Source of the DNA: Sandaracinaceae bacterium
Lineage (GTDB): Bacteria; Myxococcota_A; Polyangia; Polyangiales; Sandaracinaceae
Length of the DNA stretch: 64,000 nucleotides
Direction of reading: 5' to 3'
Assembly: GCA_044220955.1 (NCBI GenBank)
Contig: JBGAQA010000004.1
Location: 32,001-96,000 of the forward strand
Shown: one piece after another, positions 17,684 through 63,864 of the stretch
Layout: each line of letters begins with the position of its first letter
Numbering within the stretch: the first letter of the stretch is position 1
Made by a program: the position numbers and the translations under genes
The notes under the pieces: model-generated
The model's database searches: none
Seen by the model: the letters and a program-made list of their open reading frames with translations, nothing else
What the model was told of the DNA's origin: nothing

Positions 17684-19560
17684 GCACCCACGATCGCATC
17701 GGCCGCGATCCGCTCATCGGCCGGACCATCGGCGGTCGCTATCGCCTCATCCAGCGCCTCGGAACCGGCGGGATGTCGAGCGTCTACCTCGCGCGCCACG
17801 TGCTGATCGATCGCCTCATGGCGATCAAGACGCTGCGCCGCGACCTCGCGAGCGACCCCGTGCAGCGCGACCGCTTCATCCGGGAGGCGCGCGCCGTCAA
17901 CCGCATCAACCACGCGAACATCGTCGAGATCACCGACTTCGGCGAGAGCGAAGACGGTCTGGTGTACCTGGTGATGGAGTACATCGCGGGCGAGTCGCTG
18001 CTCAAGGCGATGGGCGCCGGGCCCTTCGCGCCGCTGCGCGCCCTCGACATCGCCGAGCAGGCGGGCAGCGCGCTCGCGCGGGCCCATCAGATGGGCGTGA
18101 TCCACCGGGATCTCAAGCCGGAGAACATGATCCTGGTGGAGCTGCGCGACCGGAAGGACTTCCTCAAGATCCTCGACTTCGGGATCGCCAAGATCACCGA
18201 CGCGCCGTCGCTGACGGGCTCTCAGCAGATCTTCGGCACGCCGGGCTACATCGCGCCCGAGTACATCCAGTCGACGGCGATCGACGGGCGCGCGGACCTC
18301 TACTCGCTCGGTGTGATCCTCTACGAGCTCGTCACCGGCGCGCTGCCCTTCGACTACGAGTACCCCGGCGACCTGCTCGTGAAGCACGTGACGGAGACGC
18401 CCTTCAAGCCGAGCGCGCGCAAGGCCGACGTCCCGGCGCCCATGGAGGCGTTCATCCTCCGATGCCTTCAGAAGAACCCCGACGAGCGATTCCGGGACGC
18501 GTTCCACTTCCTCGACGAGCTCCGCGCGACGCGCGAGCTGCTCGGCCCGGCGCTCTCCTGGGGCGGGCTGAACGAGGCGGACGTCCCGGTCGAAGAGGAC
18601 GACGTACCCGTCCCGATCGGCACGCCACGCCGGCCCATGTCGGCCGAGGCGCGCACGCCGCGCGACGAGGCTCGGGGCCACGACAGCACGCCGACCACCG
18701 AGCAGCTCATCGACGTGCCCGACGAGGCGCGCCGCAGCGACACCACGCTGCCGCCGCCGCCGGACCCGGGCGAGTACCCGAGCGACGGCTCGAGCCGGCC
18801 CGTGACGGCGGAGTACGTTCGTCCGGCGATCCCCGTCGCGCCCAACGACGACCTCGAGGTCGAGATCGAGGTCGAGGAGCCCGCAGGACCGCTCGAGATC
18901 CAGGAGCAGGGCGTCTCCACGGGCCTCTCGGGGGCGCGTCGGTGGCGTGAGCGCTTCGTGGCGATCCGCGCCTGCGTCGAGGAGCTCTCGGGCGGCGCGA
19001 TGCCGCCCGACGAGATCGTGCGCGCGATGGCCCTCGCCGAGCGCTCGATCGAGCAGCTCGAGGAGTCGGTGCGCAGCGCCCGGATGCACCAGCAGGCGGT
19101 CGAGGCGCTCTCCGAGCGCGCGCGCGACTTCCGCGCGACGCTCGGCAAGACGATCGACGAGCTCGCCGCCGAGCTCAGCAAGCGGCGCGGGGAGCTCACG
19201 CTGCTCGCCCAGCGACGGAGCGATCTCGCCGAGCGGCGCGACGCCGCACGGCGCGGCGTGAAGCTCGGCGGCACCACCGAGGGGCAGGCCGACGCGCTGC
19301 TCTGGGAGCTCGCGGCCGTCGAGGAGGAGCTGCGTCAGAAGGGCGGTGCGTGCGACGAGGTCGAGGCGCACCTCGGCGAGCTCCGCGCGCGCCTCGAGCG
19401 CGAGAACGAAGAGCTCGAGATCGAGCTGAGCGTGCATACCCACGTGCTCGACCAGGAGATGGTGCGCCTCTGGCCGCTCGCGACCGCGCTCCGCGATCCC
19501 CTGCAGGAGGTCGAGGACTGGGTGCGCGCGCGATGGGAAGAGAGCCCGCCAGCCTCGTGA
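17680..19560 (+). CDS. Ser/Thr protein kinase with C-terminal coiled coil
   Basis: LGTGGMSSV, AIK, HRDLKPEN, DFG, GTPGYIAPE; no TM segment. Confidence 0.95.
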   Translation: MSTHDRIGRDPLIGRTIGGRYRLIQRLGTGGMSSVYLARHVLIDRLMAIKTLRRDLASDPVQRDRFIREARAVNRINHANIVEITDFGESEDGLVYLVMEYIAGESLLKAMGAGPFAPLRALDIAEQAGSALARAHQMGVIHRDLKPENMILVELRDRKDFLKILDFGIAKITDAPSLTGSQQIFGTPGYIAPEYIQSTAIDGRADLYSLGVILYELVTGALPFDYEYPGDLLVKHVTETPFKPSARKADVPAPMEAFILRCLQKNPDERFRDAFHFLDELRATRELLGPALSWGGLNEADVPVEEDDVPVPIGTPRRPMSAEARTPRDEARGHDSTPTTEQLIDVPDEARRSDTTLPPPPDPGEYPSDGSSRPVTAEYVRPAIPVAPNDDLEVEIEVEEPAGPLEIQEQGVSTGLSGARRWRERFVAIRACVEELSGGAMPPDEIVRAMALAERSIEQLEESVRSARMHQQAVEALSERARDFRATLGKTIDELAAELSKRRGELTLLAQRRSDLAERRDAARRGVKLGGTTEGQADALLWELAAVEEELRQKGGACDEVEAHLGELRARLERENEELEIELSVHTHVLDQEMVRLWPLATALRDPLQEVEDWVRARWEESPPAS

Positions 19561-19584
19561 GGTCGAGCGGCGCGCTCGCCGCGG

Positions 19585-20865
19585 TCACCGCACGCTGGGC
19601 AGCATCGTCGGTGGGGCGACCGCCGCGGGCGCCGTCGTGAACTCGACGAAGCGCCGGATCTCGTCGGCGGCCTCCGGCCCCGGCGCGGCGAACTCGAACC
19701 CGATGGCCTGCCGGTGGCGCGCCTCGCGCTTCCAGCGCGCGACCGCGGACAGCGCGACCACGCGGCCGCTCACCGGCAGTCCCACGCGCAGCGTCACGCG
19801 CGCGCCCAGCTCGACGGGGTCGGCCAGCAGGGCCAGCAGCCCCCCCTCGCTGAGATCGGCGGTCTGCCCGTCGCGGACCGCGCCGTCGGCCGCCACCACG
19901 CGGATCGGCGCGACGTAGGGCGCGCGCGCGAAGTGGCGCCGCGGCCTGCCGGTCTCGACCGAGGGCGGGGGCGCCGCCTCGAGCACCCCGAGCGCTCCGC
20001 CGCGGATGCCGGTCGCCTCCACCAGCTCGCTCGCCATCTCCGTCGCGCTCGCGTGGCGGTCGGCCGGATCGCGCTGCAAGGCCCGCTTCATCCACCGGTC
20101 CAGCGCGTCGCAGGGACGCCCGACGGCGCTCGAGAGAGACGGGAGCGGCGATCCGGCGACGAGCGCGCGCACCAGCGCGCGCGTGCCGCCCGCGATCGGC
20201 AGCACGCCCATCAAGCACTCGTAGAACACGAGCGCGAGGGCGAACAGGTCGGCCCGGCTGTCCACGACGTCCGCGAGCAGCTGCTCGGGCGCCATGTAGT
20301 CGAGGGTCCCGATGCGGTCGCCCATGCGCGTCAGCTTCGCCGGGGCCTCGGCCGTCGAGACGAACGCGGCGACGCCGAAGTCGATCAGCTTCACCTGCTC
20401 GCGACCCGCGCGCGACCTGGTGACGAAGATGTTGGAGGGCTTGACGTCGCGATGGACCAGGCCGGCGCGGTGCACCGTCTCCAGCGCGTCGCAGACCTCG
20501 AGCGTGAGCGCCACGGTGCTCTCGAGCGGCAGCTTGGCCCGGGCGATGAGCACGGCGTCGAGCGCGCGACCGTCGAGCATCTCGAGCGCGACGTAGGGAA
20601 TCGCCCCGTCCGTGCCGGCGTCGAGCACGTCGACCACGTGCGGGCTCCGAGCGAGCTCCAGGGCGCGCGCCTCGCGCAGCAGGCGCTCGCCCAGCATGGG
20701 CGCCTCGACCAGGCTCTGATCGACGGTCTTCAGCGCGACGCGCCGGCCGAGGTGAACGTGCTCCGCCTCGAGGACGACGGCCATGCCTCCGCGCGCGATC
20801 TCGCGCCGGACGCGGAACCGATGATCGATCATCTCGCCAGGCTGGGGAACGCGGGGCTCAGGCAC
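19585..20865 (-). CDS. Ser/Thr protein kinase with C-terminal PilZ domain
   Basis: HRDVKPSN, DFG, GTLDYMAPE; PilZ motifs RRHFAR (RxxxR) and DLSEGG (DxSxxG). Confidence 0.92.
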   Translation of the reverse strand: MPEPRVPQPGEMIDHRFRVRREIARGGMAVVLEAEHVHLGRRVALKTVDQSLVEAPMLGERLLREARALELARSPHVVDVLDAGTDGAIPYVALEMLDGRALDAVLIARAKLPLESTVALTLEVCDALETVHRAGLVHRDVKPSNIFVTRSRAGREQVKLIDFGVAAFVSTAEAPAKLTRMGDRIGTLDYMAPEQLLADVVDSRADLFALALVFYECLMGVLPIAGGTRALVRALVAGSPLPSLSSAVGRPCDALDRWMKRALQRDPADRHASATEMASELVEATGIRGGALGVLEAAPPPSVETGRPRRHFARAPYVAPIRVVAADGAVRDGQTADLSEGGLLALLADPVELGARVTLRVGLPVSGRVVALSAVARWKREARHRQAIGFEFAAPGPEAADEIRRFVEFTTAPAAVAPPTMLPSVR

Positions 20866-22024
20866 GGGTCACTCCTTGGGCTGGCGTTCCTTGTCGCACG
20901 TAGGGCCCGGGCTTGGCGATCAGATAGCCCTGGACGAGATCGGCGCCGAGGTCCCGCACGCACGCCAGCTCGCCCTCCGTCTCGATGCCCTCGGCCACGA
21001 CCAGCATACCGAGGTCGTGGGCGAGGGTGCAGGTCGATCCGACGACGCGCCTGCGCACCGGATCCGTGTCCACGCCGCGCGTCAGGGACATGTCGATCTT
21101 GACCACGTCGGGCGAGATCCGCGCGAAGTAGCTGAGCCCCGCGTACCCGGCCCCGAGATCGTCGATCGCGATCCGGTATCGCAGCTTGCGCAGCGCCTCG
21201 ATCCGCGACTCCACCTCGCCGACCCCCTCGAGCGACGCCCGCTCCGTGATCTCGAGCACCACGTTGGCGGCGTGCTCGCTGAGCGGCGCGGACGGGTCGT
21301 AGAGCTGCGGGTCCGCGAGGTCGCTCGAGTGGAGGTTCACGAAGAACGCGTGGTCGAAGGGCCGTGCCTCGCGCGCCAGGCCCGCGATCATCCCGCGGAG
21401 CTGGCGCCCGAGCGCGTGGAGCCGACCGAGCAGCTCGGCTGCGCCGAGGACGGCGGGCGGGTTGGGCAGGCTCGGCTCCGACGAGCGCATCAGCGCCTCG
21501 TACCCCGACACCCTGCGTGTCGTGACGGAGACGATGGGCTGGTAGACGAGCCGAAGGCTCGACGACGCGCGCTGGAACGCCGCGTCGAGCGCCTCCCGCT
21601 CGTCGCGGCTCGGCCCGGACGCCCGGGCGCGCGTGAGGCGCCCCCACTGCACGGCCTCGCCTACCACCTCGCGGACGCGCGCCGCGTCGACCGGCTTGGC
21701 GAGGTAGCGCACCACACCCAGCTCCATCGCGCGCATCGCGTCCTCGACCTTCGGAGCGCCCGTCAGGAGCACGACCGGCACGTCCGGGTGGGTCCGGCGC
21801 AGGACCGCGAGCATCTCGAGGCCCGTCATCTCCGGCATCGAGACGTCCGAGACGATCGCGTCGACGTCCTTCATCGTCTCGAGCGCGCGAATGGCCGCCC
21901 CCGGTGACGTGAACGTCTCGACGCGGTGCCCGTGCGTCGCGAGCACGTCGGAGAGGGTCCTGGCGACCATCGGGTCGTCGTCGATCACCACCACGCGTGC
22001 GTCACTGCTCGCTCGATCATCCAT
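20858..22024 (-). CDS. Response regulator with EAL c-di-GMP phosphodiesterase domain
   Basis: REC (IDDD, SDVSMP, LAKP) followed by YQPIV, GYEALMR, FVN, EITE, IDDLGAGY, KID, AEGIE, QGY. Confidence 0.95.
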   Translation of the reverse strand: MDDRASSDARVVVIDDDPMVARTLSDVLATHGHRVETFTSPGAAIRALETMKDVDAIVSDVSMPEMTGLEMLAVLRRTHPDVPVVLLTGAPKVEDAMRAMELGVVRYLAKPVDAARVREVVGEAVQWGRLTRARASGPSRDEREALDAAFQRASSSLRLVYQPIVSVTTRRVSGYEALMRSSEPSLPNPPAVLGAAELLGRLHALGRQLRGMIAGLAREARPFDHAFFVNLHSSDLADPQLYDPSAPLSEHAANVVLEITERASLEGVGEVESRIEALRKLRYRIAIDDLGAGYAGLSYFARISPDVVKIDMSLTRGVDTDPVRRRVVGSTCTLAHDLGMLVVAEGIETEGELACVRDLGADLVQGYLIAKPGPYVRQGTPAQGVTRA

Positions 22025-24884
22025 GGTCGTTCCTCACTTCGTCGGGGCCATCGCCCTGGGGCGTCCACGCGCGGGACTGGATCAGAGCGCGGACGGCGCT
22101 CGCGTCGACCGGCTTCGGTAGCCGTGGGAATTGCGGGTCGATCCCGTCTCCGTCCCGGCTCGTGAGCAGCACCAGGCGGCTCGCGACCTCGGGTCGCCGC
22201 GCCAGCAGCCAGGGCCACCCGCCGCCCGTCCGCGAGTCACCCGCGCGCGCCTCGCAGAGCACGAGGTCGAAGCGCTCGCCGTCCTCGAGGCGTGCCCACG
22301 CCGACTCGGCCGCGTCGGTCACGACGACCTCGTGGTCGCCGCGCAGCGCTCTCGCGATGCCGTGCCTCACGAGTGGATCCCGATCCACGACCAGCAGGCG
22401 TCGTCGTCGAGCGCTCGGCGGGCTCGGGCTCGAGACCCGCGGCGGCTCGGCGCCGAGGGGTGCTCGCGCGAGCCACACGGTGAACGTCGTCCCCGCTCCG
22501 AGCGTCGACTCGCATTCGATCGTGCCGCCCGCGTCGGCGACGATGCGCTGGCTGATCGAGAGCCCGAGTCCCGTCCCCGTGCCCACCGGCTTCGTGGTGA
22601 AGAAGGGCGTGAACACGCGGCGCAGCGTGTCGGGGGTCATGCCAGGGCCGTCGTCGCAGATCGTGATCTGGGCCCCGCCGCTGCGGCCGGAGCTCGCCCG
22701 CACCCGGATCTCGCCGTGGCGTCCCGTCTCGGCGATCGCCTGCGCCGCGTTGACGATGAGGTTGACGAAGACCTGCACGAGCCGGCTCTCGGAGCCCATC
22801 GCGATCGGGACGTCCTCGATCGTGGTGTGCACCGTGGCGACCGCGCGCGTCGCCGCGTGCGAGATGCGCAGCGCCGCGTCGAGCGCGTGGCTCACGTCCA
22901 CCGGGACGATCTCGTCCCGGGGCGCCTCGCGTGAGAGCGTGCGGAGGTCGGCGACGATGGTGCGCACGCGTCGTGCGGCATCCAGCGCGGTGCGCAGGCG
23001 CCCGGCCCCCTTGCCGGTCTGCCCGATGTCCTCGAGCGCGAGCTCGATCTCGGCGACGACGGTGGTCATGGGGTTGTTGATCTCGTGCGCGATGCCGGCG
23101 GCGAGCACGCCGACGCTCGCGAGACGATCGTTGGTGATCTGCCTGACCTGTGCCTCGCGCTCCTGCGTCACGTCGCGGAGCACGGCCACGGCGCCCGCGA
23201 TCTCGCCCGCGTCGCCCTCCACGGGACGCGAGGTGACGGCGACCCAGCGCCGCTGGTTGCCCTCCGCGCGCGTGGAGATGACGCCGTCGGCGGGCTCGCC
23301 GCCGAGCGCTCTGGCCATGCTCAGATCTTGCCAGCCGCACGTCGTGACCTGACCGTCGAGACGGAGGTCGAGCCGCTCTGGCCACGCCGGTCCGGGGAGC
23401 TCCCCGATCTGCGCGACCAGCTCCCGCGCGGCCTCGTTCGCGCGGGTCAGCTTCGCGTTCCGGTCGAGCACGAGGATCGGATCCCCGATCGCATCGAGGA
23501 TCGACTCGAGCAGGTGCGCGCGCGCACGCTCGGTCTGCGAGACGTTCTCGAGCTGCTGGAACGTGCGCGCGAGCGCCAGCACGAGCGCGAGCTGCCCAGC
23601 CACGACCTCTGCGAAGTCGACGCGCTGGTCGTCGAGCGCCTCGGTGGCGTGCAGCACGATGGCGCCCAGCAGCTCGTCGCGGTGGACGACGGGCACCACG
23701 ACCGCCTCGCCCCCTTCGATGCCCACGCTGGCGCTGGTCACGCGGAGCGGAGTCCGCAGGTCCGCGCTGGCGGCCAGCTGCGCCATGAGCTGCTCGGCGG
23801 AGCTCTCCACGTCGGTGCGCGCCTCCCCGATGCTGCGGCGCACCCAGCGCGAGCCGCTCCGCACGACCACTCCGCCCCAGGCGATGCCGCCCAAGTCGAG
23901 ACACGCGTGCAGCGCGGTGTCGACGGCGCGCTCGACGTCGCCGGTCTCGGCCAGGACGCTCGTGAGACCTCCCAGCACCGCGAGCCGCGCCGAGAGCGCG
24001 GCGGTGCGCTGCGCGAGCACGGCGTTGCGCGAGAGCTGGCGATCGAGCTGGCGGGCCAAGCGCCCGGCGTGGTCGGGCGCGCCCTCGGCCGACGGCGGCG
24101 CGGGACGATTCGACCGGACCCTGCCGTTCGCGATGCGCCGGAGCTCGGGGATGGTCTCGTGGACGTCGTGCGCGCGCGCGAGGTAGGCATCCGCGCCGAC
24201 GCGCTGGGCCAGTGCGCAGTCCTCGGGCTCGAGGTCGCTGTTCGTGAGCAGCACGACCGGGATCGCGGCGAGGTCGGGGTCGGCCCGCACGCGGCTACAG
24301 AGCTCGAAGCCGTCGATGCCGGGCATCAGGACGTCGCTGACGATGAGGTGGGGGTGGTGCTCGCGCGCGGCGTGCAGCGCGGCGTGTCCGTCGGACGCGC
24401 TGATCACCTCGAAGCCGGCCTGGCCGAGGCGCAGCGCCCACAGGCGTCGCTGCGTGGCGTCGTCGTCGACCAAGAGCAGCCGAGTGCCGCGCCCGGCCGG
24501 GGGCGCGAAGCTCGCCGAGGTCGGCAGGTGCGCCTTCACGGAGTTGACGAGGCGGGGTGGGTCGATCGGCTTGGCGATCACGTCGTCGAACCCGGCCGTC
24601 GCGAGGCGCGTCTCGTCCGCGCCGGTCACCAGCCCGGTGAAGGCGAGGATCGGCACGCCGGGACCGACGCTCGCCCGCAGGGGAGCGAGCAGATCGAAGC
24701 CGTTCCCGTCGGGAAGGAGCAGGTCGAGCAAGACCAGGTCGGGACGCGCCGCCTGCGCCTCGGGGATGGCGTCCTTCGCCCGGGCGGCCTCGCTCACCGC
24801 GAGGCCCTCGGCCTCCAGCAGCGAGCGAACGAGGCGCCGGGTCCACGCGTGGTCGTCGATCAGCAGCACGCGCGCCCGGCTCAC
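22017..24884 (-). CDS. Cytoplasmic hybrid histidine kinase (REC-REC-GAF-PAS-HisKA-HATPase-degenerate REC)
   Basis: Two N-terminal REC domains; AHEINNP H-box; NLIVNAAQ, DDGPG, FFTTK, GTGLGL. GTG start at 24884. Confidence 0.93.
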   Translation of the reverse strand: MSRARVLLIDDHAWTRRLVRSLLEAEGLAVSEAARAKDAIPEAQAARPDLVLLDLLLPDGNGFDLLAPLRASVGPGVPILAFTGLVTGADETRLATAGFDDVIAKPIDPPRLVNSVKAHLPTSASFAPPAGRGTRLLLVDDDATQRRLWALRLGQAGFEVISASDGHAALHAAREHHPHLIVSDVLMPGIDGFELCSRVRADPDLAAIPVVLLTNSDLEPEDCALAQRVGADAYLARAHDVHETIPELRRIANGRVRSNRPAPPSAEGAPDHAGRLARQLDRQLSRNAVLAQRTAALSARLAVLGGLTSVLAETGDVERAVDTALHACLDLGGIAWGGVVVRSGSRWVRRSIGEARTDVESSAEQLMAQLAASADLRTPLRVTSASVGIEGGEAVVVPVVHRDELLGAIVLHATEALDDQRVDFAEVVAGQLALVLALARTFQQLENVSQTERARAHLLESILDAIGDPILVLDRNAKLTRANEAARELVAQIGELPGPAWPERLDLRLDGQVTTCGWQDLSMARALGGEPADGVISTRAEGNQRRWVAVTSRPVEGDAGEIAGAVAVLRDVTQEREAQVRQITNDRLASVGVLAAGIAHEINNPMTTVVAEIELALEDIGQTGKGAGRLRTALDAARRVRTIVADLRTLSREAPRDEIVPVDVSHALDAALRISHAATRAVATVHTTIEDVPIAMGSESRLVQVFVNLIVNAAQAIAETGRHGEIRVRASSGRSGGAQITICDDGPGMTPDTLRRVFTPFFTTKPVGTGTGLGLSISQRIVADAGGTIECESTLGAGTTFTVWLARAPLGAEPPRVSSPSPPSARRRRLLVVDRDPLVRHGIARALRGDHEVVVTDAAESAWARLEDGERFDLVLCEARAGDSRTGGGWPWLLARRPEVASRLVLLTSRDGDGIDPQFPRLPKPVDASAVRALIQSRAWTPQGDGPDEVRNDHG

Positions 24885-24896
24885 GCGCAGGGTCGA

Positions 24897-24910
24897 GCAT
24901 GGCCCGTGCC
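24897..24910 (-). promoter_or_regulatory. sigma54 -24/-12 promoter of the hybrid kinase/EAL/kinase-PilZ operon
   Basis: Minus strand cGG-CACGGGCCAT-GCt with exact 10-nt spacing; predicted +1 ~24885, immediately before GTG 24884. Confidence 0.7.
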
Positions 24911-24950
24911 GCGCGGGACCGGTCGCCCACGACCCGAGCGGGCGCGGAGT

Positions 24951-24988
24951 TGGTCCATTTCGTCCACCCACCTGGCCGAAATGGACCA
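24951..24988. promoter_or_regulatory. Paired inverted 16-bp sites, putative enhancer (UAS) for a sigma54 activator
   Basis: TGGTCCATTTCGTCCA (24951-24966) and TGGCCGAAATGGACCA (24973-24988) are reverse complements at 15/16 positions; each is TGG-N10-CCA. Confidence 0.65.
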
Positions 24989-25049
24989 CCTCGCGCTGGC
25001 CCGAATGACACCGTCGGCCGGCACGCCTCGTGTAACACTGGCACCTGCG

Positions 25050-27353
25050 ATGAGCGCTGCCGTCCCGCGCATCCTGGTGGGCATCGTGCTCGCCGCGGCC
25101 TTGCTCGTCGCCAGCGCGCTCGCCGCATCGCGGGCGTACGGGACGGCCTTCCCTTCGCTCTTCGTCGATCCGTTCGGTGGCTTCTCCGCGGTGACGCTTC
25201 CGGCCTGGGGCGACGGGCTCGACGTGGAGATCGGCGCGCCCGTCACTCCGTCGGAGGACGGGGCGGACGCGAGCTCGCTGCCGGCGGAGCGCCTCTCGGC
25301 GGCTGCGGCCGCAGCCGAGGCGCGGGGCGACACTTCGCTCCGCGTCGTGATCGGCGCGCCTCCTGCGGCCCGGCAGGTATCACTTCCTCTGCGCCGGCTG
25401 GGCGCCGCCGAGATCCTCTGGCTCTACGGGCTCTACGTGCTCGCCGGCCTGCTGCTCCTGTGGTCGGGGATGATGGTCGGGGTCGTCGCGGGCGAGCAGG
25501 CGGGGGGGCGCGCGTACGTCGCGCTCGCGCTCGTCGCGTTCGTCTTCCTGGTGACGTTCCTCGACTACCACACCACTCGTTGGCTCGCGCCGCTGTTCGC
25601 GGCCGCCACCGTCGGGAACTCGGTCGCGCTCTTCGGCCTCGCCTGGCACTTCCCCGAGGCACCCGCGGTCGGTCCGACGGCCCGCCGGATCGCCGCGCTG
25701 GCGCTCTGGATCGGCGTCGCCTTCTCGATCGCCCTCGCGCTCTGCGTCGCGCTCGGGATCGACTTCCGAGCCGGCCGACGGCTCGCGGACCTCCTCGCCC
25801 CGTGCGCGCTCTTCGCGCCCATCGTCGGCGTGCTGCTGCGGATGTATCGACGCGACGCGCAGGGCGCGCGCAAGCAGGTCAGGTCGGCGGCGCTGGCGCT
25901 GCTCGCCGTGCCCATCACGCTCGCCGTGGCGTTCGCCGTGCTCCTGTCGCTGGGACGGCTCGCGGTGTTTCCCGCGGCGCTGCCGTTCGTATCGTTCGCG
26001 GTCCCGGGGGCGATCGGCACCGCCCTCATCCGTCACAACGCGCTCGGCGTTCGTCGGGTGGTCACCCAGCGCCTGCTCTACCCGCCGATCGGCCTGATCG
26101 CGTGCACTCTCGCTGCCGCCTTCGCGCAGCCCTTGTGGGCTCCCGGGACCTGGGTCCAGTCGATCGCGGTCGGCGCTTCGGTCGGCGTCGCGTTCTCGCT
26201 GCTCGCCGTGACCTTCGTCGCCCGCGTGTTCGGGCGCGCCACCGCGACGTTCCAGCCCACCCTCGAGGGGCTCGCCGACGAGGTCGCGGCGCTGCGCAGG
26301 CCCGATGCCATCCGTGGGCGCCTGGCGGAGCTGGTCCACCGGTGCCTCCCCTCGCGCGACGTGCGCAGCGTGTCGGCGAGCGAGCTCGACTCGCTTCGCT
26401 TGACCGAGATCGATCGCCGAAGGCTCGCGGCCGGCCAGACCGTCTGGACGGATCCGGCACAGAGCGCGCCCGAGCCCTCGCTCGTCGCGCCGCTCCGGTT
26501 CGGTGGACAGGCGCTCGGCGCGCTGATCGTGTCGCCTCGCGCAGGGGACGGCTTGTTCACGGACGCCGAGATCCGCATGTTCCAGACGATGGTGAGCCTC
26601 GGCGCGCTCGCGCTCCACCACGCGGAGCTGCTGCGCGAGGTCGAGGAGCGGCGGGCGATCGAGGTGGCGGCGACGCGCGGCGACGGCCGACGCGCCGTCG
26701 ACGCCATCGCCGCCGAGATCGCGCACGAGCTCTCGTATCCCATCACCTTCTTCCGGCACACGCTCAACCAGGTGGCGGCCGGACGGCTGAGTCACGACAT
26801 CGTGGAGGTCGGCAAGGACGAGGTGGAGCGCCTCGAGCGCATGCTCGCCTGGGTCCGCAAGCTGCAGGTGCCGGTGCCGGAGGTGGGGCGGGTGCGCGTG
26901 CGCCTCGTGGTGGGTCACGCGCTCGTGCTGCTGCAGAGCGAGCTCGAAGCCCGGCACATCACCTGCGACGTGGACGTCCCCGCGGAGCTCGAGGTCGCGG
27001 CGGAGCAGGACGCCCTGCTCCAGCTGGTGGCGAATCTGCTCCGAAACGCCATCCGCGCGGCGCGATCCCGCGTCGGCGTCGCGATCCGGGACGAGCGAGG
27101 GCTGCCCGAGCTCGCGGTCTGGGACGACGGTCCGGGCGTCCCCGCGGATCTCGTCGAGCGGATCTTCGATCCGTCCTTCACCACGCAGAGCGACGTCGAG
27201 GGGCACGGGCTCGGCCTCGCGGTCGCCCAGCGCGTGGTCACGGGGTTCGGCTGGAGCATCGACGTGCGTCGCGAGGACCAACGAACGGTGTTCGCCGTCT
27301 CCATGAGGCAGCGCGGCGCGCGCGCCGACGTCCTCAAGCGGGTCGCGTCGTGA
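25050..27353 (+). CDS. Multi-TM sensor histidine kinase with GAF domain
   Basis: N-terminal TM, periplasmic loop, several TM helices, GAF-like segment, AHELSYP H-box, NLLRNA, DDGPG, GHGLGL. Confidence 0.9.
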   Translation: MSAAVPRILVGIVLAAALLVASALAASRAYGTAFPSLFVDPFGGFSAVTLPAWGDGLDVEIGAPVTPSEDGADASSLPAERLSAAAAAAEARGDTSLRVVIGAPPAARQVSLPLRRLGAAEILWLYGLYVLAGLLLLWSGMMVGVVAGEQAGGRAYVALALVAFVFLVTFLDYHTTRWLAPLFAAATVGNSVALFGLAWHFPEAPAVGPTARRIAALALWIGVAFSIALALCVALGIDFRAGRRLADLLAPCALFAPIVGVLLRMYRRDAQGARKQVRSAALALLAVPITLAVAFAVLLSLGRLAVFPAALPFVSFAVPGAIGTALIRHNALGVRRVVTQRLLYPPIGLIACTLAAAFAQPLWAPGTWVQSIAVGASVGVAFSLLAVTFVARVFGRATATFQPTLEGLADEVAALRRPDAIRGRLAELVHRCLPSRDVRSVSASELDSLRLTEIDRRRLAAGQTVWTDPAQSAPEPSLVAPLRFGGQALGALIVSPRAGDGLFTDAEIRMFQTMVSLGALALHHAELLREVEERRAIEVAATRGDGRRAVDAIAAEIAHELSYPITFFRHTLNQVAAGRLSHDIVEVGKDEVERLERMLAWVRKLQVPVPEVGRVRVRLVVGHALVLLQSELEARHITCDVDVPAELEVAAEQDALLQLVANLLRNAIRAARSRVGVAIRDERGLPELAVWDDGPGVPADLVERIFDPSFTTQSDVEGHGLGLAVAQRVVTGFGWSIDVRREDQRTVFAVSMRQRGARADVLKRVAS

Positions 27354-28726
27354 GCATCCTGGTCGTCGACGATCAGCGCACCGCGCGGGTGATCCTGCGG
27401 GACATCCTGGCCGACGAGGGGCTCGCGGTCCTCGAGGCGGAGAACGCAGCGGAGGCGCGCCGGCTCAGCGCGGAGCACGCGATCTCGCTCGCCTTCGTCG
27501 ACATCCGGCTCTCCAGCGATCCACGAGATCGCAGCGGGCTTGAGCTCGTACGCGAGCTGCGCGAGACCAGCGGCGCCTCGGTCGTCGTCGTCTCCGGGCT
27601 GCGAGAGACGCACGAGGTCCGCGCGGCCTTCCGCTTCGGAGCCGACGACTACCTGCTCAAGGACGAGATCGCCGAGGAGACGCTTCGCCCGATCGTCGCC
27701 CGCGTGCGCGAGCGCGCTCAGCTCCTCGCGGAGGTCCACGCGCTCCGAGCGCGGGTCTCGGGTCGTCCGCGCGAGGTCACGAGCATCGTCGGCACCTCGG
27801 CGCCGATCCGCGCGCTGCGCGAGCGGATCCGCCGCGTCGCCAGCTCCGCGCGCCCCGTCCTGGTGAGAGGCCCCTCGGGCTGCGGCAAGGAGCTGGTCGT
27901 CCGCGAGATCCACGCGCTCGGCCCGGCGCCGGACGCGCCGCTCTTCGACGTCAACTGCGCGGCCCTCCCGGAGTCGCTCGTCGAGTCCTACCTCTTCGGC
28001 CACGAGCGCGGCGCCTTCACGGGGGCCGATCGGCGCATGCCGGGTGCGTTCGGAGCCGTCGGAAGCGGCACGCTGTTCCTCGACGAGGTCGCGGAGCTGT
28101 CGCCGACGATGCAGGCGAAGCTCCTGCGCGTCCTGGAGTCGAACCGCTACCGAGCCATCGGCTCGACGCGCGACCAGTCCTTCACCGGACGTATCGTCGC
28201 CGCCACACACGCGGACCTCGAGGCGCAGGTGAAGGTGGGCCGCTTCCGGGAGGATCTCTATCACCGGCTCGACGTGCTCGTGGTCCGCGTGCCCCCGCTC
28301 GGCGCGCGCAGGGAGGACATCGCCTCGCTCGTCGCGCACTTCGCTCGGCAGCAGCCCCGCGTGCTCCGGTTCACCGAGGAGGCTCTCGGAGCGCTCGAGC
28401 GCGCCGAGTGGCCGGGCCACGTTCGACAGCTACGAAACGTGATCGATCGCCTGGCGGTGCTGCACGAGGACGACCCCATCACGGCTGACACGGTGCACGC
28501 CGAGCTCGGCGTCGTGGACGAGAGCCCTGAGCTCTCGACCTTGGCCCGCCTCGCGCTGGCGCGGCCCGGGCCCAACCGGCTCGAGGCGCTCGAGCGCGCG
28601 CTCATCGAGGAGGCCCTGCGCATGTCGCGCGGGAGCCACTCCGAAGCCGCGCGCCTTCTCGGCGTCCACCGAAAGCGCATCGCGCGCCGGGTCGGACGGA
28701 GCGAGTGGCCGACCGAAGCGGACTGA
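27350..28726 (+). CDS. sigma54-dependent response regulator (REC-AAA+-HTH, NtrC family)
   Basis: ILVVDD, FVDIRL; GPSGCGKE, GAFTGA, FLDE, FREDLYHRL, WPGHVRQL; C-terminal HTH. GTGA overlap with the kinase. Confidence 0.95.
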   Translation: MSILVVDDQRTARVILRDILADEGLAVLEAENAAEARRLSAEHAISLAFVDIRLSSDPRDRSGLELVRELRETSGASVVVVSGLRETHEVRAAFRFGADDYLLKDEIAEETLRPIVARVRERAQLLAEVHALRARVSGRPREVTSIVGTSAPIRALRERIRRVASSARPVLVRGPSGCGKELVVREIHALGPAPDAPLFDVNCAALPESLVESYLFGHERGAFTGADRRMPGAFGAVGSGTLFLDEVAELSPTMQAKLLRVLESNRYRAIGSTRDQSFTGRIVAATHADLEAQVKVGRFREDLYHRLDVLVVRVPPLGARREDIASLVAHFARQQPRVLRFTEEALGALERAEWPGHVRQLRNVIDRLAVLHEDDPITADTVHAELGVVDESPELSTLARLALARPGPNRLEALERALIEEALRMSRGSHSEAARLLGVHRKRIARRVGRSEWPTEAD

Positions 28727-28770
28727 GCGCCCCGGACGACGAGCGCTCACATGCGCGGGTGATGAGGGTT

Positions 28771-28784
28771 GGTGTGCGGAATGC
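28771..28784 (+). promoter_or_regulatory. sigma54 -24/-12 promoter of the cyclase/GNAT/UbiA operon
   Basis: ttGG-TGTGCGGAAT-GCa with 10-nt spacing; predicted +1 ~28796, ATG at 28799. Confidence 0.55.
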
Positions 28785-28798
28785 AAGGGGCCGCACCC

Positions 28799-29764
28799 AT
28801 GACCTCCACCCTCCGAACCTCCGAGCCCCTTCGTCTCCTCGAATCGACACGCGCGCGCGCGCGCCCCGCGCGAGCGATCGCGGCGTCGCTGCGCGCTGCG
28901 ATCGGCGCCTCGTGGTCTGCCCACGAGCGCGCCTTCCCGCTGCACCAGAGCGACTCCATCACCTTCGACCGCACCGAGCCCGTCGAGACCGAGTGCTTCT
29001 CGATCGCGACGATCCTCGATCTGTGCGGCCACCACGTGGACGCTCCGACGCGGCGCGCCGCGCAGCGGAGCCTGCTCGACGACCTCGCGCGCAGCGGCGA
29101 CCTCGTCCGCTTCTTCCGGTCCGAGCGCCTCCCTCCGGACGCCGACTGCACGGCCGTCGCCGCCCTCGCCTTGTGGGAGCTCGGCGCGCTCGACACGCGC
29201 CGCGCACGCTCGATCGCGTCGCGCTTGCTCGACCATCGCACGCGAGACGGCCGGATCTCGGTCTACTTCGACGACGAGGGGGAGCGCGCCGAGCGCGTCG
29301 ACGCCGTCGTGACGTGCAACGTCCTGCGCTTCGCGACCCAGGTCGGCATCGCCGAGCGCTCGGCGAGCGACGTCGAGCAGATCCGGGCGGCGCTCGGCAG
29401 CCCCACGCGGTACTACCCGGCCGACGTGCTGCTCTTCGCGGCGGCGCGGCTCGTCCACGCTCGCGCCGACCTCGCGCCCGCGCTCGCACCGATGCTGCGC
29501 GAGGCGCTCGCGGCGAGGCGCGCGTCCGAGGCGACGTCCCTGGAGCAGGCGTGCCGGGCCGCCGCGGCGTTCTACGCCGGGCTCGAGGCCGAGCACGTGC
29601 TCGAGCTCGCGCTTCCGCTGCGCGACGTGTCCCGGCCGTTGCGGCCGGAGCCGTTCTTCTCGCTGGGACGTCGTGCGTCGTACTTCGGATCGACGCCGCT
29701 CACGGCCGCGTTCCGACTTCACGCGATCACCCTCGGGGCCTCCGTCGGAGCGGGCCATGACTGA
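28799..29764 (+). CDS. Putative monodomain class II terpene cyclase (beta-domain)
   Basis: RFF...LPPDADCTAVA (DxDxT acid motif, 29138-29152), DGRISVYFD..RVDAVVTCNVL, TRYY, YFGSTPLTAA. This pattern matches the cyclase domain of HAD-fused drimenol-type cyclases. Sits in an operon with UbiA. Confidence 0.65.
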   Translation: MTSTLRTSEPLRLLESTRARARPARAIAASLRAAIGASWSAHERAFPLHQSDSITFDRTEPVETECFSIATILDLCGHHVDAPTRRAAQRSLLDDLARSGDLVRFFRSERLPPDADCTAVAALALWELGALDTRRARSIASRLLDHRTRDGRISVYFDDEGERAERVDAVVTCNVLRFATQVGIAERSASDVEQIRAALGSPTRYYPADVLLFAAARLVHARADLAPALAPMLREALAARRASEATSLEQACRAAAAFYAGLEAEHVLELALPLRDVSRPLRPEPFFSLGRRASYFGSTPLTAAFRLHAITLGASVGAGHD

Positions 29765-30893
29765 GCCCGTCGAGCACTTCCGGGGCGCTGCTGGAGCGGC
29801 GCGCCTCGAGGGCGATCGCCATGGGGCCCGCGGTCGCTACCTCGCGGCGCTCGTGCGCGGTCCGCTGCGCCAGTACGCCGACAACGTCGGAGACGTCCGG
29901 ATGGAGGTCGTCGCGGTCGGCGAGACGCTGGTGCCGATCCTGCTGAACGACGGTGGGGACACGGACTGCTACCTGACCTCTCCGATCGGCTACTACGTCC
30001 GCTACGTACGAGACGAGATCCCGCGTCTGCGACAGGACGCCTTCACGCGGGTCTTCGACAAGGTGATCGCGGGGCTCGAGCACCCGCTGCGCTGGTCGTC
30101 GTTCAATCGTGTCGCGTACGTGAATCACTGGCTCATGAGCACCTCGCCGCGCGTGCGCTTCGACCGCTCGAGCCTCGAGGCGCTCACGCGCCACCTCGAG
30201 CGCGAGTACCCGACGCACACCCTCGTGTTTCGCGGTCTGACGCGCGACGAGACGGAGCACTGCTCGAGCTTCGCGGCGGCGGGCTACGAGCTCGTGGTGA
30301 GCCGTCCGATCCACGTGTGGAGCAGCGATCGCCGGGTGGAGTCTCGCGACACGCGGCGCCAGCGCGTCTGCGACGCGCGCGCCGTCGAGCGCTTCGTCGT
30401 CGGACACGAGCCCTCCGCGCACGACCTCGACGCCATCCCGGCGCTCTATCGCAGGCTCTACGTGGAGAAGTACTCGCGGATGAACCCGGCGTACACGCGC
30501 GCGTACTTCGCGCACCTGCTCGACTCCGGCTGGGGCGCGGTGACGATGCTCCACTCGGACGGCGCGCTGGTCGGCTTCGTGACCCACGCGATCGACGCCG
30601 ACGGTGCGCTGCTCGGCCTGAGCGTGGGGCACGATCCGGCCGTCTCCCAGCGGGACCTGCCCGTCTACCGCGCGCTCGTCTCGACCCTCTTCCAGCGCGC
30701 CGAGCGCGAGCAGAGAGCGCTCTTCCTCAGCACCGGGGTGTCCGACTTCAAGCGGCGGCGCGGCGCGGTCGAGCTGCTCGAGTTCGACGCGGTGCGCGCG
30801 GCGCACGCGCCTTGGCCCGCGCGCGCGGCCTGGTGGACGGTCGGGAGCGCCTTCGATCTGGCGATCCAGAACATCGACACGAGGCAGGTATGA
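29757..30893 (+). CDS. GNAT-fold (Fem/Acetyltransf_6-like) protein
   Basis: YLTSPIGYYVRY, VNHWLMST, LYRRLYVEKYSRMNPAYT, STGVSDFKRRRGA; overlaps both neighbours. Confidence 0.7.
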   Translation: MTEPVEHFRGAAGAARLEGDRHGARGRYLAALVRGPLRQYADNVGDVRMEVVAVGETLVPILLNDGGDTDCYLTSPIGYYVRYVRDEIPRLRQDAFTRVFDKVIAGLEHPLRWSSFNRVAYVNHWLMSTSPRVRFDRSSLEALTRHLEREYPTHTLVFRGLTRDETEHCSSFAAAGYELVVSRPIHVWSSDRRVESRDTRRQRVCDARAVERFVVGHEPSAHDLDAIPALYRRLYVEKYSRMNPAYTRAYFAHLLDSGWGAVTMLHSDGALVGFVTHAIDADGALLGLSVGHDPAVSQRDLPVYRALVSTLFQRAEREQRALFLSTGVSDFKRRRGAVELLEFDAVRAAHAPWPARAAWWTVGSAFDLAIQNIDTRQV

Positions 30894-31780
30894 GCGCGCA
30901 CGCCAGCACGCTGCGCGTGGGCCTACGCGACGTGGTTCGCACGGCGCGCCTCCCCAAGATCGCGCCGGTGCCGCTGCTCGCGTGGAGCGGCTACGCGCTC
31001 CGCCACGGACGGGACGTCCTGCCGCTGGCCTGGGTCACGCTCGCGGTCGTCGCGGTCACGCTCCTGGTGACCCGCCTCAACGTGCTCACCGACGAGTCGC
31101 TCGACCTTGCGAGCCGCCCCGAGCTCGCGCGCGGCCTGCGGCGCAGCGCGCGGTTCGTCGTCGGCGCGAGCGTGGTCGAGGTCGCGCTGCTCTGCGTCGC
31201 GTTGCTCGCGGTGGACGGCGACGCTCGTCTCGCGCTCGTCGCGCTGCTCGCGTTCGGCGTGCTCTACTCGTTCAACTTCCTGTCGCCGCATCCGGTGCGC
31301 TCGCGCTGGAAGGCCCACTGGCTCGGCCACGCCGCGGCGTTCGTCGGGAGCTATGCCGCGCTCTGGGCCGCGGGAGCCGGCGCGGCCGGGCACGGCGGCG
31401 GGGCGCTCGTGCTGCTCGTGGCGCTCGCCACCGGCGTCGTCGACTACGCCGTGTACGTCGGCGAATGCGCGATCGACCACGACGAAGAGGCCTCCGCGGG
31501 CCTGCGCACGGCGGCGGCGCTGCTCGGCCCGCGCACGTCGTCCGTGCTCGCGCTCGTCCTGTTCGGCGCCGGTGCCTGCCTCCATGCCAGCTGGATCACC
31601 ACCGCGCTGGCCGCGGCGTTCGTGCCGCCGCTCGCGCTGCGAGGCACGTTCCTCGTGGCACTCGCCGCCGCGGAGCTCGGAGGCCACCGGGATCGCGCTC
31701 ACGCGCTGCGCTCGCGCGCGGCCGACGCCGTGTTCCTCGCGACGCGCCTCTGGACCTTCTTCGCGCTCGCGCTCGCCTGA
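30890..31780 (+). CDS. UbiA family membrane prenyltransferase
   Basis: Multiple TM helices; motif I RLNVLTDESLD (NxxxDxxxD), LYS, R.K, motif II IDHDEEASAGLRT. ATGA overlap. Confidence 0.8.
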   Translation: MSAHASTLRVGLRDVVRTARLPKIAPVPLLAWSGYALRHGRDVLPLAWVTLAVVAVTLLVTRLNVLTDESLDLASRPELARGLRRSARFVVGASVVEVALLCVALLAVDGDARLALVALLAFGVLYSFNFLSPHPVRSRWKAHWLGHAAAFVGSYAALWAAGAGAAGHGGGALVLLVALATGVVDYAVYVGECAIDHDEEASAGLRTAAALLGPRTSSVLALVLFGAGACLHASWITTALAAAFVPPLALRGTFLVALAAAELGGHRDRAHALRSRAADAVFLATRLWTFFALALA

Positions 31781-31786
31781 GCGTCG

Positions 31787-32245
31787 TCAGTACGTGCGGA
31801 CGCCCGAGAGGAGCCAGCCCTGGCCCTCGCGGCGGAGCGTCAGCGTGACGTGCACGCGCTCGCCGTCGACGCGCGCGCCGACCGAGACCGTGCCCGTCTC
31901 GCCGCGGACGTCGACCTCGTCCTGCACGATCTCCACGTGACCGTCGCGGTCGAGCGGCTCGAGCGCGTCGTGCAGGACGTCGGGCAGCGCCGCTTCGTCG
32001 TCGATGCGCCAGTGCGCACGGCCCGCGCTCACGTACACCGGCTCGCGCGACGGAGCGGCCCAGGCGAGCAGCCCGTCGACCCGACGATCGGCGCCGTCGA
32101 GCGTGAGGACCCGGGCGACCTCCTCCAGGCGCTCCGTGTCCGTCTCGACCATCGCGTCCGCGACGGCGGTGCCGAGGGCGAGCGTCACCAACAAGGCCGA
32201 AGACCAGAGCGCGACCTGCGCGCGGGTGAGACCGAAGAGCTCCAT
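31787..32245 (-). CDS. Membrane-anchored protein with NTF2-like C-terminus
   Basis: N-terminal TM, VETDTERL, C-terminal beta strands ending LRREGQGWLL. Confidence 0.7.
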   Translation of the reverse strand: MELFGLTRAQVALWSSALLVTLALGTAVADAMVETDTERLEEVARVLTLDGADRRVDGLLAWAAPSREPVYVSAGRAHWRIDDEAALPDVLHDALEPLDRDGHVEIVQDEVDVRGETGTVSVGARVDGERVHVTLTLRREGQGWLLSGVRTY

Positions 32246-32259
32246 GAGCGCACCCTGCA

Positions 32260-32273
32260 GCAGGGTCCGTGCC
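32260..32273 (-). promoter_or_regulatory. Possible sigma54 -24/-12 element
   Basis: Minus strand cGG-CACGGACCCT-GCt, 14 nt before ATG 32245. Confidence 0.45.
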
Positions 32274-32378
32274 GCGTCGGGCAGCCCAGGTTTCGCGGGA
32301 GATCCGAGGCTCCGGCGCCGCTCGAGTGACAGTCTGTCATCGACCGTCGCGCGATCGACGGTCTCGCGTGACAGCCGA

Positions 32379-32690
32379 TCAGGGCGGCGCCTCGCTCGAT
32401 CCGAGCAGCGCGCGGACGTCTCCGGGCCGCACGCCCATCACCTCGACCCGCTTGCGCCGAGACCTCTGTCCTGCCGTGATGCGCACCTCGCGCCTGGCCA
32501 CGCGCAGGGCCTTGGCGACGAACGCGATCAGCGCCTCGTTCGCCGCTCCATCGACCGGCGGGGCCGTCAGCGCGACCTTGAGCGCGCCATCGTGCGTGCC
32601 GATCACCGTCTCGCGGCTCGCCCGCGGCGCGACGAGCACCCCGAAGCGCACGCCGCCGACGATCTCCTCGATCGCGACCTCGCTCGACAT
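32379..32690 (-). CDS. DUF167 (YggU/UPF0235) family protein
   Basis: V.V.PRASR...LKVALTAPPVDGAANEAL...G..SRRK; TAGGCT 7 nt before the ATG. Confidence 0.92.
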   Translation of the reverse strand: MSSEVAIEEIVGGVRFGVLVAPRASRETVIGTHDGALKVALTAPPVDGAANEALIAFVAKALRVARREVRITAGQRSRRKRVEVMGVRPGDVRALLGSSEAPP

Positions 32691-32723
32691 CGCACGGAGC
32701 CTAGCGACATTCTCCCCTCTCCG

Positions 32724-58984: not shown

Positions 58985-59809
58985 GTGGACGATCGCCCGC
59001 GCCGCGCGCACAGTCGTCTCGACGTGGACACGGACGGGCTCGGCTTCGTGATGCTCTTCCTCGGCGCGGTGACGGCGCTGCCGACCCTCGTGCTCCTCTA
59101 CTTCACGCTGACGGACGACGGCGCCCTCGCTCGGTTCCACGCCACGCCGCGCCAGCCCATCCGAGGCGCGCGGTCCGGCGACGCGCTCAAGATCGCCGGC
59201 GTCGCCGCTGCGCTCGAGCCGCTCGTCGGGCCCTTCACGGGCCGTGACGCGGTCTGGTACGCCCTCGTGGTGACGGAGACGGAGCGCTCGTTCGACGGAA
59301 CGCACCTGCGCGAGCGCGTCACGCGCCATCTCGCGGAGCAGAGCCGCGCGCCCTTCGTGGTCACGGACGACTCGGGAACGTCGGCGCGCATCGTGGTGGA
59401 CGGCGAGGAGCTGCTGCCGAACGTCACCAGCGAGACGTTCGAGCCCCCGCTCCCCGCGCGCGTGCGGCAGGCACTCGAGGCCCGGGGCATCCCGACGCGC
59501 GCGAAGGGCGGCGAGCCGAGGCACCTCGTCTGCATCGAGCGCGCGATCGCGCCGGCAGACCCCGTGGTCGCGATCGGTCCGGCGCGGCGCGTGACGAGCG
59601 GGAGCGGCGAGGCGACGAGCTACCGCGACGCCCCGACCGAGCTCGTCCTCGGCGAGCGCGCCGCGTCCGGAGCGCGCATGTTCGTGCTGACGAACCGCCC
59701 CGAGCGGGAGCTCGGCGCGGGCGAGCGTCGCTTGACCCAGATCACCTGGGCGCTCGCCGCCTCCACGCTCGCGCTGCTCGGCGGCGGCGCGTGGCTCTTC
59801 TTCGGGTGA
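58985..59809 (+). CDS. Membrane protein with GIDE-like domain
   Basis: TMs at both ends; KIAG...PLVGPFTGRDAVWY, PFVVTDDSG.ARI, ERAIAPADPVVAIG. Start may be 59024 or 59051. Confidence 0.7.
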   Translation: MDDRPRRAHSRLDVDTDGLGFVMLFLGAVTALPTLVLLYFTLTDDGALARFHATPRQPIRGARSGDALKIAGVAAALEPLVGPFTGRDAVWYALVVTETERSFDGTHLRERVTRHLAEQSRAPFVVTDDSGTSARIVVDGEELLPNVTSETFEPPLPARVRQALEARGIPTRAKGGEPRHLVCIERAIAPADPVVAIGPARRVTSGSGEATSYRDAPTELVLGERAASGARMFVLTNRPERELGAGERRLTQITWALAASTLALLGGGAWLFFG

Positions 59810-59897
59810 CGCAGCCGCTTTCTTCGTTGCGCCCCGCGGAGCGCCCGGATAGCGTGCCCCCCCGACCGCGCCGGTTTTTCGCGCGGGGGAGTGATCG

Positions 59898-63298: not shown

Positions 63299-63307
63299 CG
63301 AGAAATT

Positions 63308-63342
63308 CCCTCTCCCACTTCGTGGGAGAGGGTTAGGGTGAG
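63308..63342. repeat. REP-like palindrome CCCTCTCCCAC-TTC-GTGGGAGAGGG plus TTAGGGTGAG tail
   Basis: Perfect 11-bp stem directly after the sdhB stop; related to 10434-10457. Confidence 0.8.
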
Positions 63343-63357
63343 CCTGGGGAGGCACGA

Positions 63358-63864
63358 ATGGCTCGTCATCACCTGAAGTCGATCGCGAAGGAGTCGGTCC
63401 CGCGGGCGCTCGAGAAGGCGGAGCGTTACCGCTTGCTGAACGAGCCCTTCCTCGCCGAGAGCATCTGCCTCGACATCCTCGCGATCGAGCCGGAGAACGA
63501 GGCGGCGCTCGTCTGCTACGTGCTCTCGCTCACCGACCAGTTCGGCGCGGGCCCAGGCGGGAGCGTGAAGAAGGCGCGCGCCGCGGTCGCCAAGCTGAGG
63601 ACCGAGTACCAGCGGCACTACTACTCGGGTCTCATCTGCGAGCGCCGCGGTCAGGCCTACGCCGAGAGCAACGCGATGGGATCGCGCGACGCCGCCTGGG
63701 ATTACATCGCGGAGGCGATGGAGTGCTACGAGCGGGCGGCCGCGGACACGCACGAGAAGGGCAACGACGACCCGATCCTGCGGTGGAACACCTGCGTCCG
63801 GCTCATCGAGGCCCACGGCCTGGTCGAGCCCAGCGTCGAGCGCAGCGAGCACCCGCTCGAGTAG
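63358..63864 (+). CDS. Hypothetical TPR-like helical protein
   Basis: SD GGGGAGG; ALEKAERYRLLNEP..AESIC, YY.G.ICERR, ILRWNTC. Confidence 0.8.
   Translation: MARHHLKSIAKESVPRALEKAERYRLLNEPFLAESICLDILAIEPENEAALVCYVLSLTDQFGAGPGGSVKKARAAVAKLRTEYQRHYYSGLICERRGQAYAESNAMGSRDAAWDYIAEAMECYERAAADTHEKGNDDPILRWNTCVRLIEAHGLVEPSVERSEHPLE

Follow-up and report, generated by a model that had tools for sequence, protein, structure and literature searches.

As far as the literature was searched, prenyl-peptide quorum sensing has been demonstrated only in Firmicutes, and a census to 2013 found no comQXPA outside this group (PMC4008528). Its receptor ComP is a protein of 763 amino acids (aa) with ten helices and a PDZ loop after the first transmembrane helix, TM1 (PMC9620489). 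In Paenibacillus alvei, PalQ prenylates a terminal Trp and a histidine kinase adjoins (PMC10853753), while ChrPC and NctPC perform Trp prenylation and then class II cyclisation on a ribosomal peptide (PMC13290415). The DNA treated in this work, called the window, is a stretch of 64,000 nucleotides (nt) from a Sandaracinaceae bacterium (assembly GCA_044220955.1, contig JBGAQA010000004.1), which carries a block of eight genes with a ComP-like receptor kinase and an adjacent sigma54 activator (Table 1). Our main discovery is the receptor family itself, with a concrete candidate in the cultured strain Sorangium cellulosum So ce56, and we consider it probable that the myxobacterial family is a ComQXPA-like pheromone system. 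To our knowledge, few diffusible self-signals have been chemically defined in myxobacteria.

Table 1. Coordinates of the features in the window.
Feature	Position	Strand	Basis and remarks
Lineage-specific insertion with both gene halves	19561..31786	.	Flank adjacency in congeners
Ser/Thr kinase-PilZ fusion	19585..20865	-	Pfam Pkinase E 6e-37, PilZ E 2e-15
REC-EAL phosphodiesterase	20858..22024	-	Pfam EAL E 4e-51, Response_reg E 3e-26; catalytic motifs intact
Hybrid histidine kinase REC-REC-GAF-PAS-HisKA-HATPase-REC	22017..24884	-	Pfam; likely start GTG 24884
Sigma54-type -24/-12 element of minus-strand operon	24896..24911	-	9/11 consensus positions; 12 nt before start codon
Tandem dyad TGGNC-N6-GNCCA x2, predicted enhancer	24947..24992	.	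Inverted repeat and family recurrence
ComP-like receptor kinase	25050..27353	+	TM1 and a PDZ-like loop, then 7-9 further membrane helices, GAF, HATPase, His559 kinase core
NtrC-type sigma54 activator	27350..28726	+	Pfam REC, Sigma54_activat AAA+ and HTH_8; GAFTGA intact
Weak sigma54-like element before cyclase	28770..28785	+	<8/11; no dyad nearby; function doubtful
Stand-alone class II terpene cyclase beta domain, AsDMS-like	28799..29764	+	Sequence and fold match; 321 aa, single domain
Double-GNAT (Acetyltransf_6/FemAB-like)	29757..30893	+	Pfam E 2e-7
Divergent UbiA-family prenyltransferase	30890..31780	+	Pfam E 6e-6, 26 bits vs 34-bit cut-off

The family sample comprised 46 distinct receptor loci from 43 myxobacterial genomes, among which close kin are not independent; duplicates, 19 metagenome loci (counted apart) and the distant receptors L104-L107, L127 and L128 stand outside this count. 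The membrane part of the receptor formed 128 clusters at 50% identity and occurred in 29 of 401 genomes of the order. In a class-wide receptor search, generic kinase cores dominated the matches, and full-length ones alone were used. Two genes recurred at the receptor loci, a candidate precursor gene, here called X, and a ComQ/PalQ-like prenyltransferase gene, Y. Y was present in 42 of the 46 loci, the activator in 43, an S8 peptidase in 28 and a class II cyclase in six, while X was detected by profile in 35; as 12 X sequences had served to build this profile, the last count is partly circular, and four further X were found by eye. Other loci of the family carried clostripain-like or C39-like peptidases, or a methyltransferase. 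Since nearly every other receptor locus has Y, a prenylated ligand is likely.

The X products are ~100-200 aa long and have a variable tail, preceded by an unrelated helical leader with no Pfam or NCBIfam match. All 35 found by profile have a Trp within the last eight residues, and the last residue itself is Trp (14), Tyr (20) or Asn (1); in the genome hosting the window, 44 of 3415 genes (1.3%) end in Trp and 27 (0.8%) in Tyr. Y has a trans-isoprenyl-synthase fold, as all 40 PDB rows were polyprenyl synthases (best E 4e-5). The motif Q..DD..D, i.e., a Gln before the second Asp-rich motif, was kept in 55 of 56 loci with a Y match, duplicates included, and the Gln before this motif (SARM) has been named for Trp prenyltransferases (PMC13290415). 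By sequence, Y appears to fit the Trp prenyltransferases of the trans-IDS-like kind (IDS, isoprenyl diphosphate synthase), such as ComQ, PalQ and ChrPC-P. A complex prediction for Y with X, based on the L054/L055 alignments, scored 0.02 and was counted neither way. Four X sequences, from L173, L174, L179 and L181, do not fit the Trp rule, as they end in Tyr and have no Trp in the tail; the Y of these loci is a candidate Tyr-acting prenyltransferase of the trans-IDS type. This sub-family carries a clostripain-like gene and a class II cyclase (three of the four). The tail types of X follow the receptor clades in the tree, which would be expected of pherotypes but also of plain descent. A sister family (L096-L103, L161, L165-L180) has the near-invariant tail SPWKESNxY across genera, as opposed to the hypervariable Trp-ended tails, and this tail is possibly a shared interspecies signal. 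In two loci a methyltransferase dependent on S-adenosylmethionine adjoins Y (L162:1019-1909 and L164:5442-6605), and for L162 the best match, below threshold, was a geranyl diphosphate 2-C-methyltransferase; a possible role is tailoring of the prenyl chain.

The cultured candidate is the complete cassette of Sorangium cellulosum So ce56 (NC_010162.1, 4473920-4481226; L054:6404-13710). X (4473920-4474441) has a Trp end and is followed by Y (4474428-4475360), and then by the S8 peptidase, the kinase and the activator up to 4481226. In both L054 and L055 the cassette is followed on the same strand by caspase-TIR and TIR-like genes.

The receptor kinase of the window gave 8 hydrophobic segments by hydropathy, and 10 long helices in the structure model (predicted local distance difference test 89.6), where TM1 is followed by a beta-rich loop and then by nine long helices. 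A profile of the loop returned 28 PDB rows, all of PDZ-bearing proteins and each weak (E 0.13-0.98), and PDZ_6 was found in 2 of 57 members of the receptor family. The receptor thus has the build published for ComP, i.e., 8-10 membrane helices with a PDZ-like loop following TM1, the comparison being one of layout. The kinase core was recognised as PF00512 in 17 of the 57 members, and PF07730 was absent from the matches listed. In the tree, which was a quick search supported by the Shimodaira-Hasegawa-like approximate likelihood ratio test (SH-aLRT) only, the receptor grouped with L046 and P0007 (SH-aLRT 96), near L045 and L047. P0007 is the closest receptor, with 48% identity, and L045, L046 and L047, the nearest ones with known context, all have X and Y together with a class II cyclase. 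The branch of the window receptor is longer (1.05 vs 0.52-0.71), and the core strand of the PDZ loop, D-R-L..DG, is lost in it as well as in P0007. A Foldseek fold search with the receptor gave no match at E 0.001, and a plasmid collection contained no match for the receptor or Y. Similarity to seven-helix bundles like those of G-protein-coupled receptors (VIA-align, Z 10-12, root-mean-square deviation ~5) was too weak beyond the common helix arrangement and was not used.

Before the kinase gene lies the paired palindrome which the earlier note had placed at 24951-24988. Its arms, 24947-24966 and 24973-24992, have 20 nt each, are 90% complementary and resolve into two tandem dyads. The dyad pattern was derived from the window site alone, and this site is the sole 16/16 match in the 7.5-Mb genome. 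Upstream of X, a score of at least 14/16 was reached in 12 of 35 family loci as compared with 6 of 583 control windows, and a score of at least 13/16 in 22 of 35 as compared with 27 of 583; the relatives L046, L101 and L178 had 16/16, and none of 30 unrelated loci reached 15. The recognition helix of the activator, GVHRK.I.RR, is common to the core-family activators (14 compared) and differs from that of the next-best activators in the genome. Because the dyad recurs upstream of X and the recognition helix is shared with the core family, the palindrome is very likely the enhancer of this activator. The arrangement found here, a REC-AAA+(GAFTGA)-HTH activator and a -24/-12 promoter that has a tandem site upstream of it, is that of a sigma54 enhancer-binding two-component system. 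We are confident of the receptor-family assignment and the enhancer taken together. The position of the dyad upstream of X in relatives predicts positive feedback on signal production, and as an enhancer motif the dyad is usable in regulon searches.

The -24/-12 element of the minus-strand operon lies 77 nt from the dyad start, with 79-80 nt in L047, L045 and L119; several relatives have a sigma54-like element at 79-126 nt, and many score none at the threshold used. The usual enhancer-promoter spacing is 80-150 base pairs (PMC7910581). The window's promoter faces the minus strand, and the output operon occupies the slot which the precursor gene has in relatives. The earlier note proposed GG-N10-GC elements, and with them sigma54 control, before both flanking operons. 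Both elements exist where the note had placed them (24897-24910 and 28771-28784). With 13.5 occurrences of the bare pattern per kb on each strand, such elements need context, and as evidence the pattern was rejected as uninformative; the fuller sigma54 consensus with 2 mismatches gave 27 matches, with 41 expected by chance. The proposal stood for the element at 24896-24911 and for an NtrC-type activator acting from a palindromic site, which points at the operon for cyclic di-GMP (c-di-GMP) and kinase functions, and it was not supported for the element at 28771-28784 as a second promoter serving the cyclase operon. Transcription of the cyclase, GNAT and UbiA genes more likely comes from read-through of the kinase-activator transcript, given the gap of 72 nt. 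For the kinase, GG-N10-GT at ~25019 is a candidate promoter on the plus strand that scored below threshold. Both sigma54-like elements of the window lie 12-15 nt before start codons (24884-24911 and 28771-28799), and near-leaderless transcripts are therefore expected, unlike in the relatives, whose promoters are followed by a ribosome site. Dyads also occur directly downstream of the activator gene in L095, L113 and L119, which suggests a second regulated promoter there.

The relatives of the window module resemble ComQXPA in that a single operon encodes the kinase, the regulator, a transferase of the isoprenyl-synthase fold and a variable precursor that has a Trp close to its C-terminus. The differences are several: the host is Gram-negative, the regulator is a sigma54 AAA+ activator with HTH_8 and not ComA (PF00196), the kinase core is HisKA-like and not HisKA_3 (PF07730), and the relatives' precursors have a linked peptidase, a preceding enhancer and a greater length than the 52-73 aa of ComX. 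In addition, the window lacks the ComQ-like transferase and the precursor. In function the window module is ComQXPA-like, yet it falls outside ComQXPA proper, because the kinase core and regulator differ and ComQ and ComX are absent. With PalQ/PalX/PalP of P. alvei the myxobacterial family shares a C-terminal Trp in the precursor, a trans-IDS-like transferase and a histidine kinase in the cluster; an NHLP leader stands there in place of the unrelated helical one, and no signalling role is described in the available part of the source (PMC10853753). The sigma54 activator, the peptidase and the tailoring by cyclase or methyltransferase belong to the myxobacterial family. For L045-L047, L174, L179 and L181 the prediction is that, as with ChrPC/NctPC, Trp of a ribosomal peptide is prenylated and the prenyl chain then undergoes class II cyclisation, with the difference that the enzymes are fused in ChrPC/NctPC, while in the relatives separate genes are tied to a receptor and activator (PMC13290415). 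The statement of the earlier note that no described system has this layout does not hold for the receptor module, which works like ComQXPA and PalQ/PalX/PalP. Our literature search found no myxobacterial case of the system, although the ChrPC/NctPC papers, a 2026 prenyltransferase review or their supplements may list these clusters; the main text of PMC13445942 mentions neither prenyl, ComQ nor quorum.

Neither X nor Y was found in the window, and profile searches of the host genome (7.5 Mb in 301 contigs, 87.9% complete) gave no match for them. A PF05952 search of the same genome was negative, with a model that was silent on all controls as well. Our preferred reading, which we hold tentatively and rate as possible rather than probable, is that a sensing module of the ComQXPA-like kind was inserted here, in which the signal was swapped for a cyclised prenyl small molecule made by the cyclase, GNAT and UbiA proteins. 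The nearest receptors with known context carry X, Y and cyclase, and in the window other enzymes thus maintain both chemistries, prenyl transfer as well as class II cyclisation. UbiA would put farnesyl or geranylgeranyl on a small acceptor, GNAT would acylate or aminoacylate it, and the class II cyclase would close the prenyl chain, giving a mimic of the cyclised prenyl-Trp tail that the nearest relatives are predicted to have. The lipid signal may bind the membrane bundle of the kinase, which would phosphorylate the adjacent activator; this would bind the tandem dyad and fire the sigma54 promoter, which drives the precursor gene in relatives and here the genes for the hybrid kinase, REC-EAL and kinase-PilZ proteins. 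The hybrid kinase would then phosphorylate REC-EAL, c-di-GMP would fall and the PilZ-bearing kinase would read its level. All chemistry and binding in the family and the window are inferred from sequence. The peptide-to-terpenoid swap, if true, would show how a receptor changes its ligand class. The whole picture in one, i.e., a widespread myxobacterial ComQXPA-like system which diversifies its signal by prenyl cyclisation or methylation and whose window receptor has dropped the peptide for a terpenoid tied to c-di-GMP, is a doubtful though possible one. The earlier note had also proposed a prenylated signal, and the link of the receptor family to prenyl chemistry speaks for this part; the peptide signal of the relatives, absent here, was overlooked.

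Among the trio of cyclase, GNAT and UbiA, the cyclase matched the class II beta domain of the drimenol synthase AsDMS by sequence (E 8e-14) and by fold (template modelling score 0.78-0.79, Foldseek E 4e-15), and the fold of MstE with a score of 0.67. In its motif, DADCT, the catalytic Asp is kept, as Asp116 aligns with D333 of AsDMS, an essential Asp (PMC9128629). MstE, a monodomain cyclase, acts on a prenylated aromatic acid according to PDB titles and is a model for the combination of UbiA and cyclase. The window cyclase differs from the HAD-like cyclases AsDMS and AstC in having no HAD domain, in DADCT instead of DxDTT and in its GNAT partner. Its closest kin are stand-alone genes, found in 10 of 301 genomes of the class, the host included. 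In two of nine loci (L014:6874-10368 and L019:7057-10415) the neighbours of a DADCT or DVDT class II cyclase are a P450-like gene and a class I terpene synthase, and this gene set would form a compact terpene pathway. The GNAT protein is predicted to be an acyl or aminoacyl transferase. Its closest homologue is P0003 (74% identity), and the closest ones with known context (40% and 36%) adjoin a UbiA homologue in genomes G946 and G692. UbiA has the motifs N..TD..LD and E.A.D..E, present but altered in an alignment with three homologues, and all 30 matches of its Atlas search were UbiA. Homologue searches by word index gave one protein for the cyclase, four for GNAT and one for UbiA, and a PDB sequence search gave no match for GNAT or UbiA. 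Around the UbiA-GNAT pair, B12 radical SAM genes were seen in G946, and the same UbiA type lies beside CADD-like and P450-like genes in G971 (L228:9031-16398, L229:9090-11176, L227:3499-10007). Membership of GNAT in KAS III/epimerase/MBL clusters was considered and dropped, as those homologues (25-36%) are more distant than the UbiA-linked ones.

Several observations weigh against a swapped signal. GNAT or UbiA was found in none of the 46 genome loci and none of the 19 metagenome loci of the receptor, which makes the combination a single instance. No dyad precedes the trio and the promoter there is weak. The UbiA-GNAT pair stands without a nearby receptor in G946 and G692, where the cyclase and Y were not found, and because it stands alone there it can work without a receptor system. 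The retention of the PDZ motif in the window receptor, 10 of 17 positions, is within the family range of 6-16. In an alternative reading, the receptor still senses prenyl-Trp peptides that other myxobacteria make and switches the c-di-GMP/kinase operon on, with the trio being an output or a passenger. For it speak the conserved family core of the receptor (14 of 16 positions kept at the loop start and 49 of 67 in the membrane part), the orientation of the enhancer away from the trio, and UbiA-GNAT as an independent module. There are also receptor loci without a findable Y, i.e., the receptor-activator pairs L170 (G773, 98% complete) and L183 (G331, 93%), which are candidate listeners of this kind; G773 retains a precursor. 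Such listening leaves unexplained, however, why a prenyltransferase and a rare cyclase stand behind a receptor whose kin have the same chemistry, and the PDZ core of this receptor is shortened. We regard it as unlikely.

Two other receptors without linked Y have X and Y elsewhere in the genome (G116 and G971). This is a precedent for the view that the locus is an ordinary split member, with its own X and Y in the part of the host genome missing from the fragmented and incomplete assembly. Against it, the profiles found nothing in the host, the block is a local insertion, and among the 31 other genomes of the host's family no full Y was found, the partial matches being three at ~30 bits, one of them in G326. 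An own, unlinked peptide system is thus very improbable.

Two further points against the swapped signal concern the cyclase, which alone of 14 aligned sequences is without the C-terminal Q..DG.W motif, and which belongs to the stand-alone DADCT subfamily and not to the receptor family's own cyclases. The lost motif may mean decay. The locus could in that case be a mosaic of three modules captured at one site, with receptor or cyclase drifting and only the activator-driven minus-strand operon coherent, and the long receptor branch as well as the separate occurrence of each module elsewhere agree with this. But all eight open reading frames are open with a G+C content at third codon positions of 0.91-0.95, no frameshift was found in the long contigs of two runs covering the block, and the perfect dyad is retained with a correctly spaced promoter. 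Decay of this kind is distinctly unlikely in our judgement, and the swapped signal stays the preferred reading.

The block is a single unit as an insertion and not as a conserved eight-gene system. Its flanking genes are neighbours in the congeners G301 (15 nt apart), G303 (~145 nt) and G304 (~710 nt), i.e., the block is absent from the syntenic site in three of five congeners, and the remaining two are uninformative. Contigs of another public run, which is possibly itself a source of the assembly, span 18336-22776, 23078-28021 and 28066-34000 with 6-11 letter differences each. The gene linkage is not an assembly artefact, because these contigs bridge both junctions and the divergent promoter. 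The public runs containing the block are sludge and bioreactor metagenomes, and no RNA dataset was among those listed. The eight genes named in the earlier note proved intact and with the named domains found by Pfam, apart from the cyclase, which had no Pfam or NCBIfam match. Their expected co-occurrence was not borne out, as the hybrid kinase, like GNAT and UbiA, had no homologue in the 46 receptor loci, and the EAL and Ser/Thr kinase proteins had one in a single locus each. Nor did composition mark an island, with a G+C content of 72-74% in the block and 72.5% in the genome. At 59000-64000 of the window, the G+C content drops to 66-70% over housekeeping-looking genes (e.g., succinate dehydrogenase-like), probably due to high expression rather than transfer.

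Homologues of the minus-strand genes occur at other places in the genus, where REC-EAL and kinase-PilZ are repeatedly found as a pair. From its sequence, REC-EAL is predicted to degrade c-di-GMP, and kinase-PilZ, with the motifs HRD, DFG, RxxxR and DxSxxG all intact, is a predicted c-di-GMP-sensing kinase. The hybrid kinase has Glu in place of Asp in the last receiver; its nearest NCBIfam models are EspC/EspA, below cut-off, and its homologues in congeners (47-51%) are at other loci. Paralogous pairs of REC-EAL and kinase-PilZ were observed near sigma54 activators in L196 (G000:C265:94-4142, in the host genome), L200 and L205, and the pair in this setting is a recurring c-di-GMP output module of the genus.

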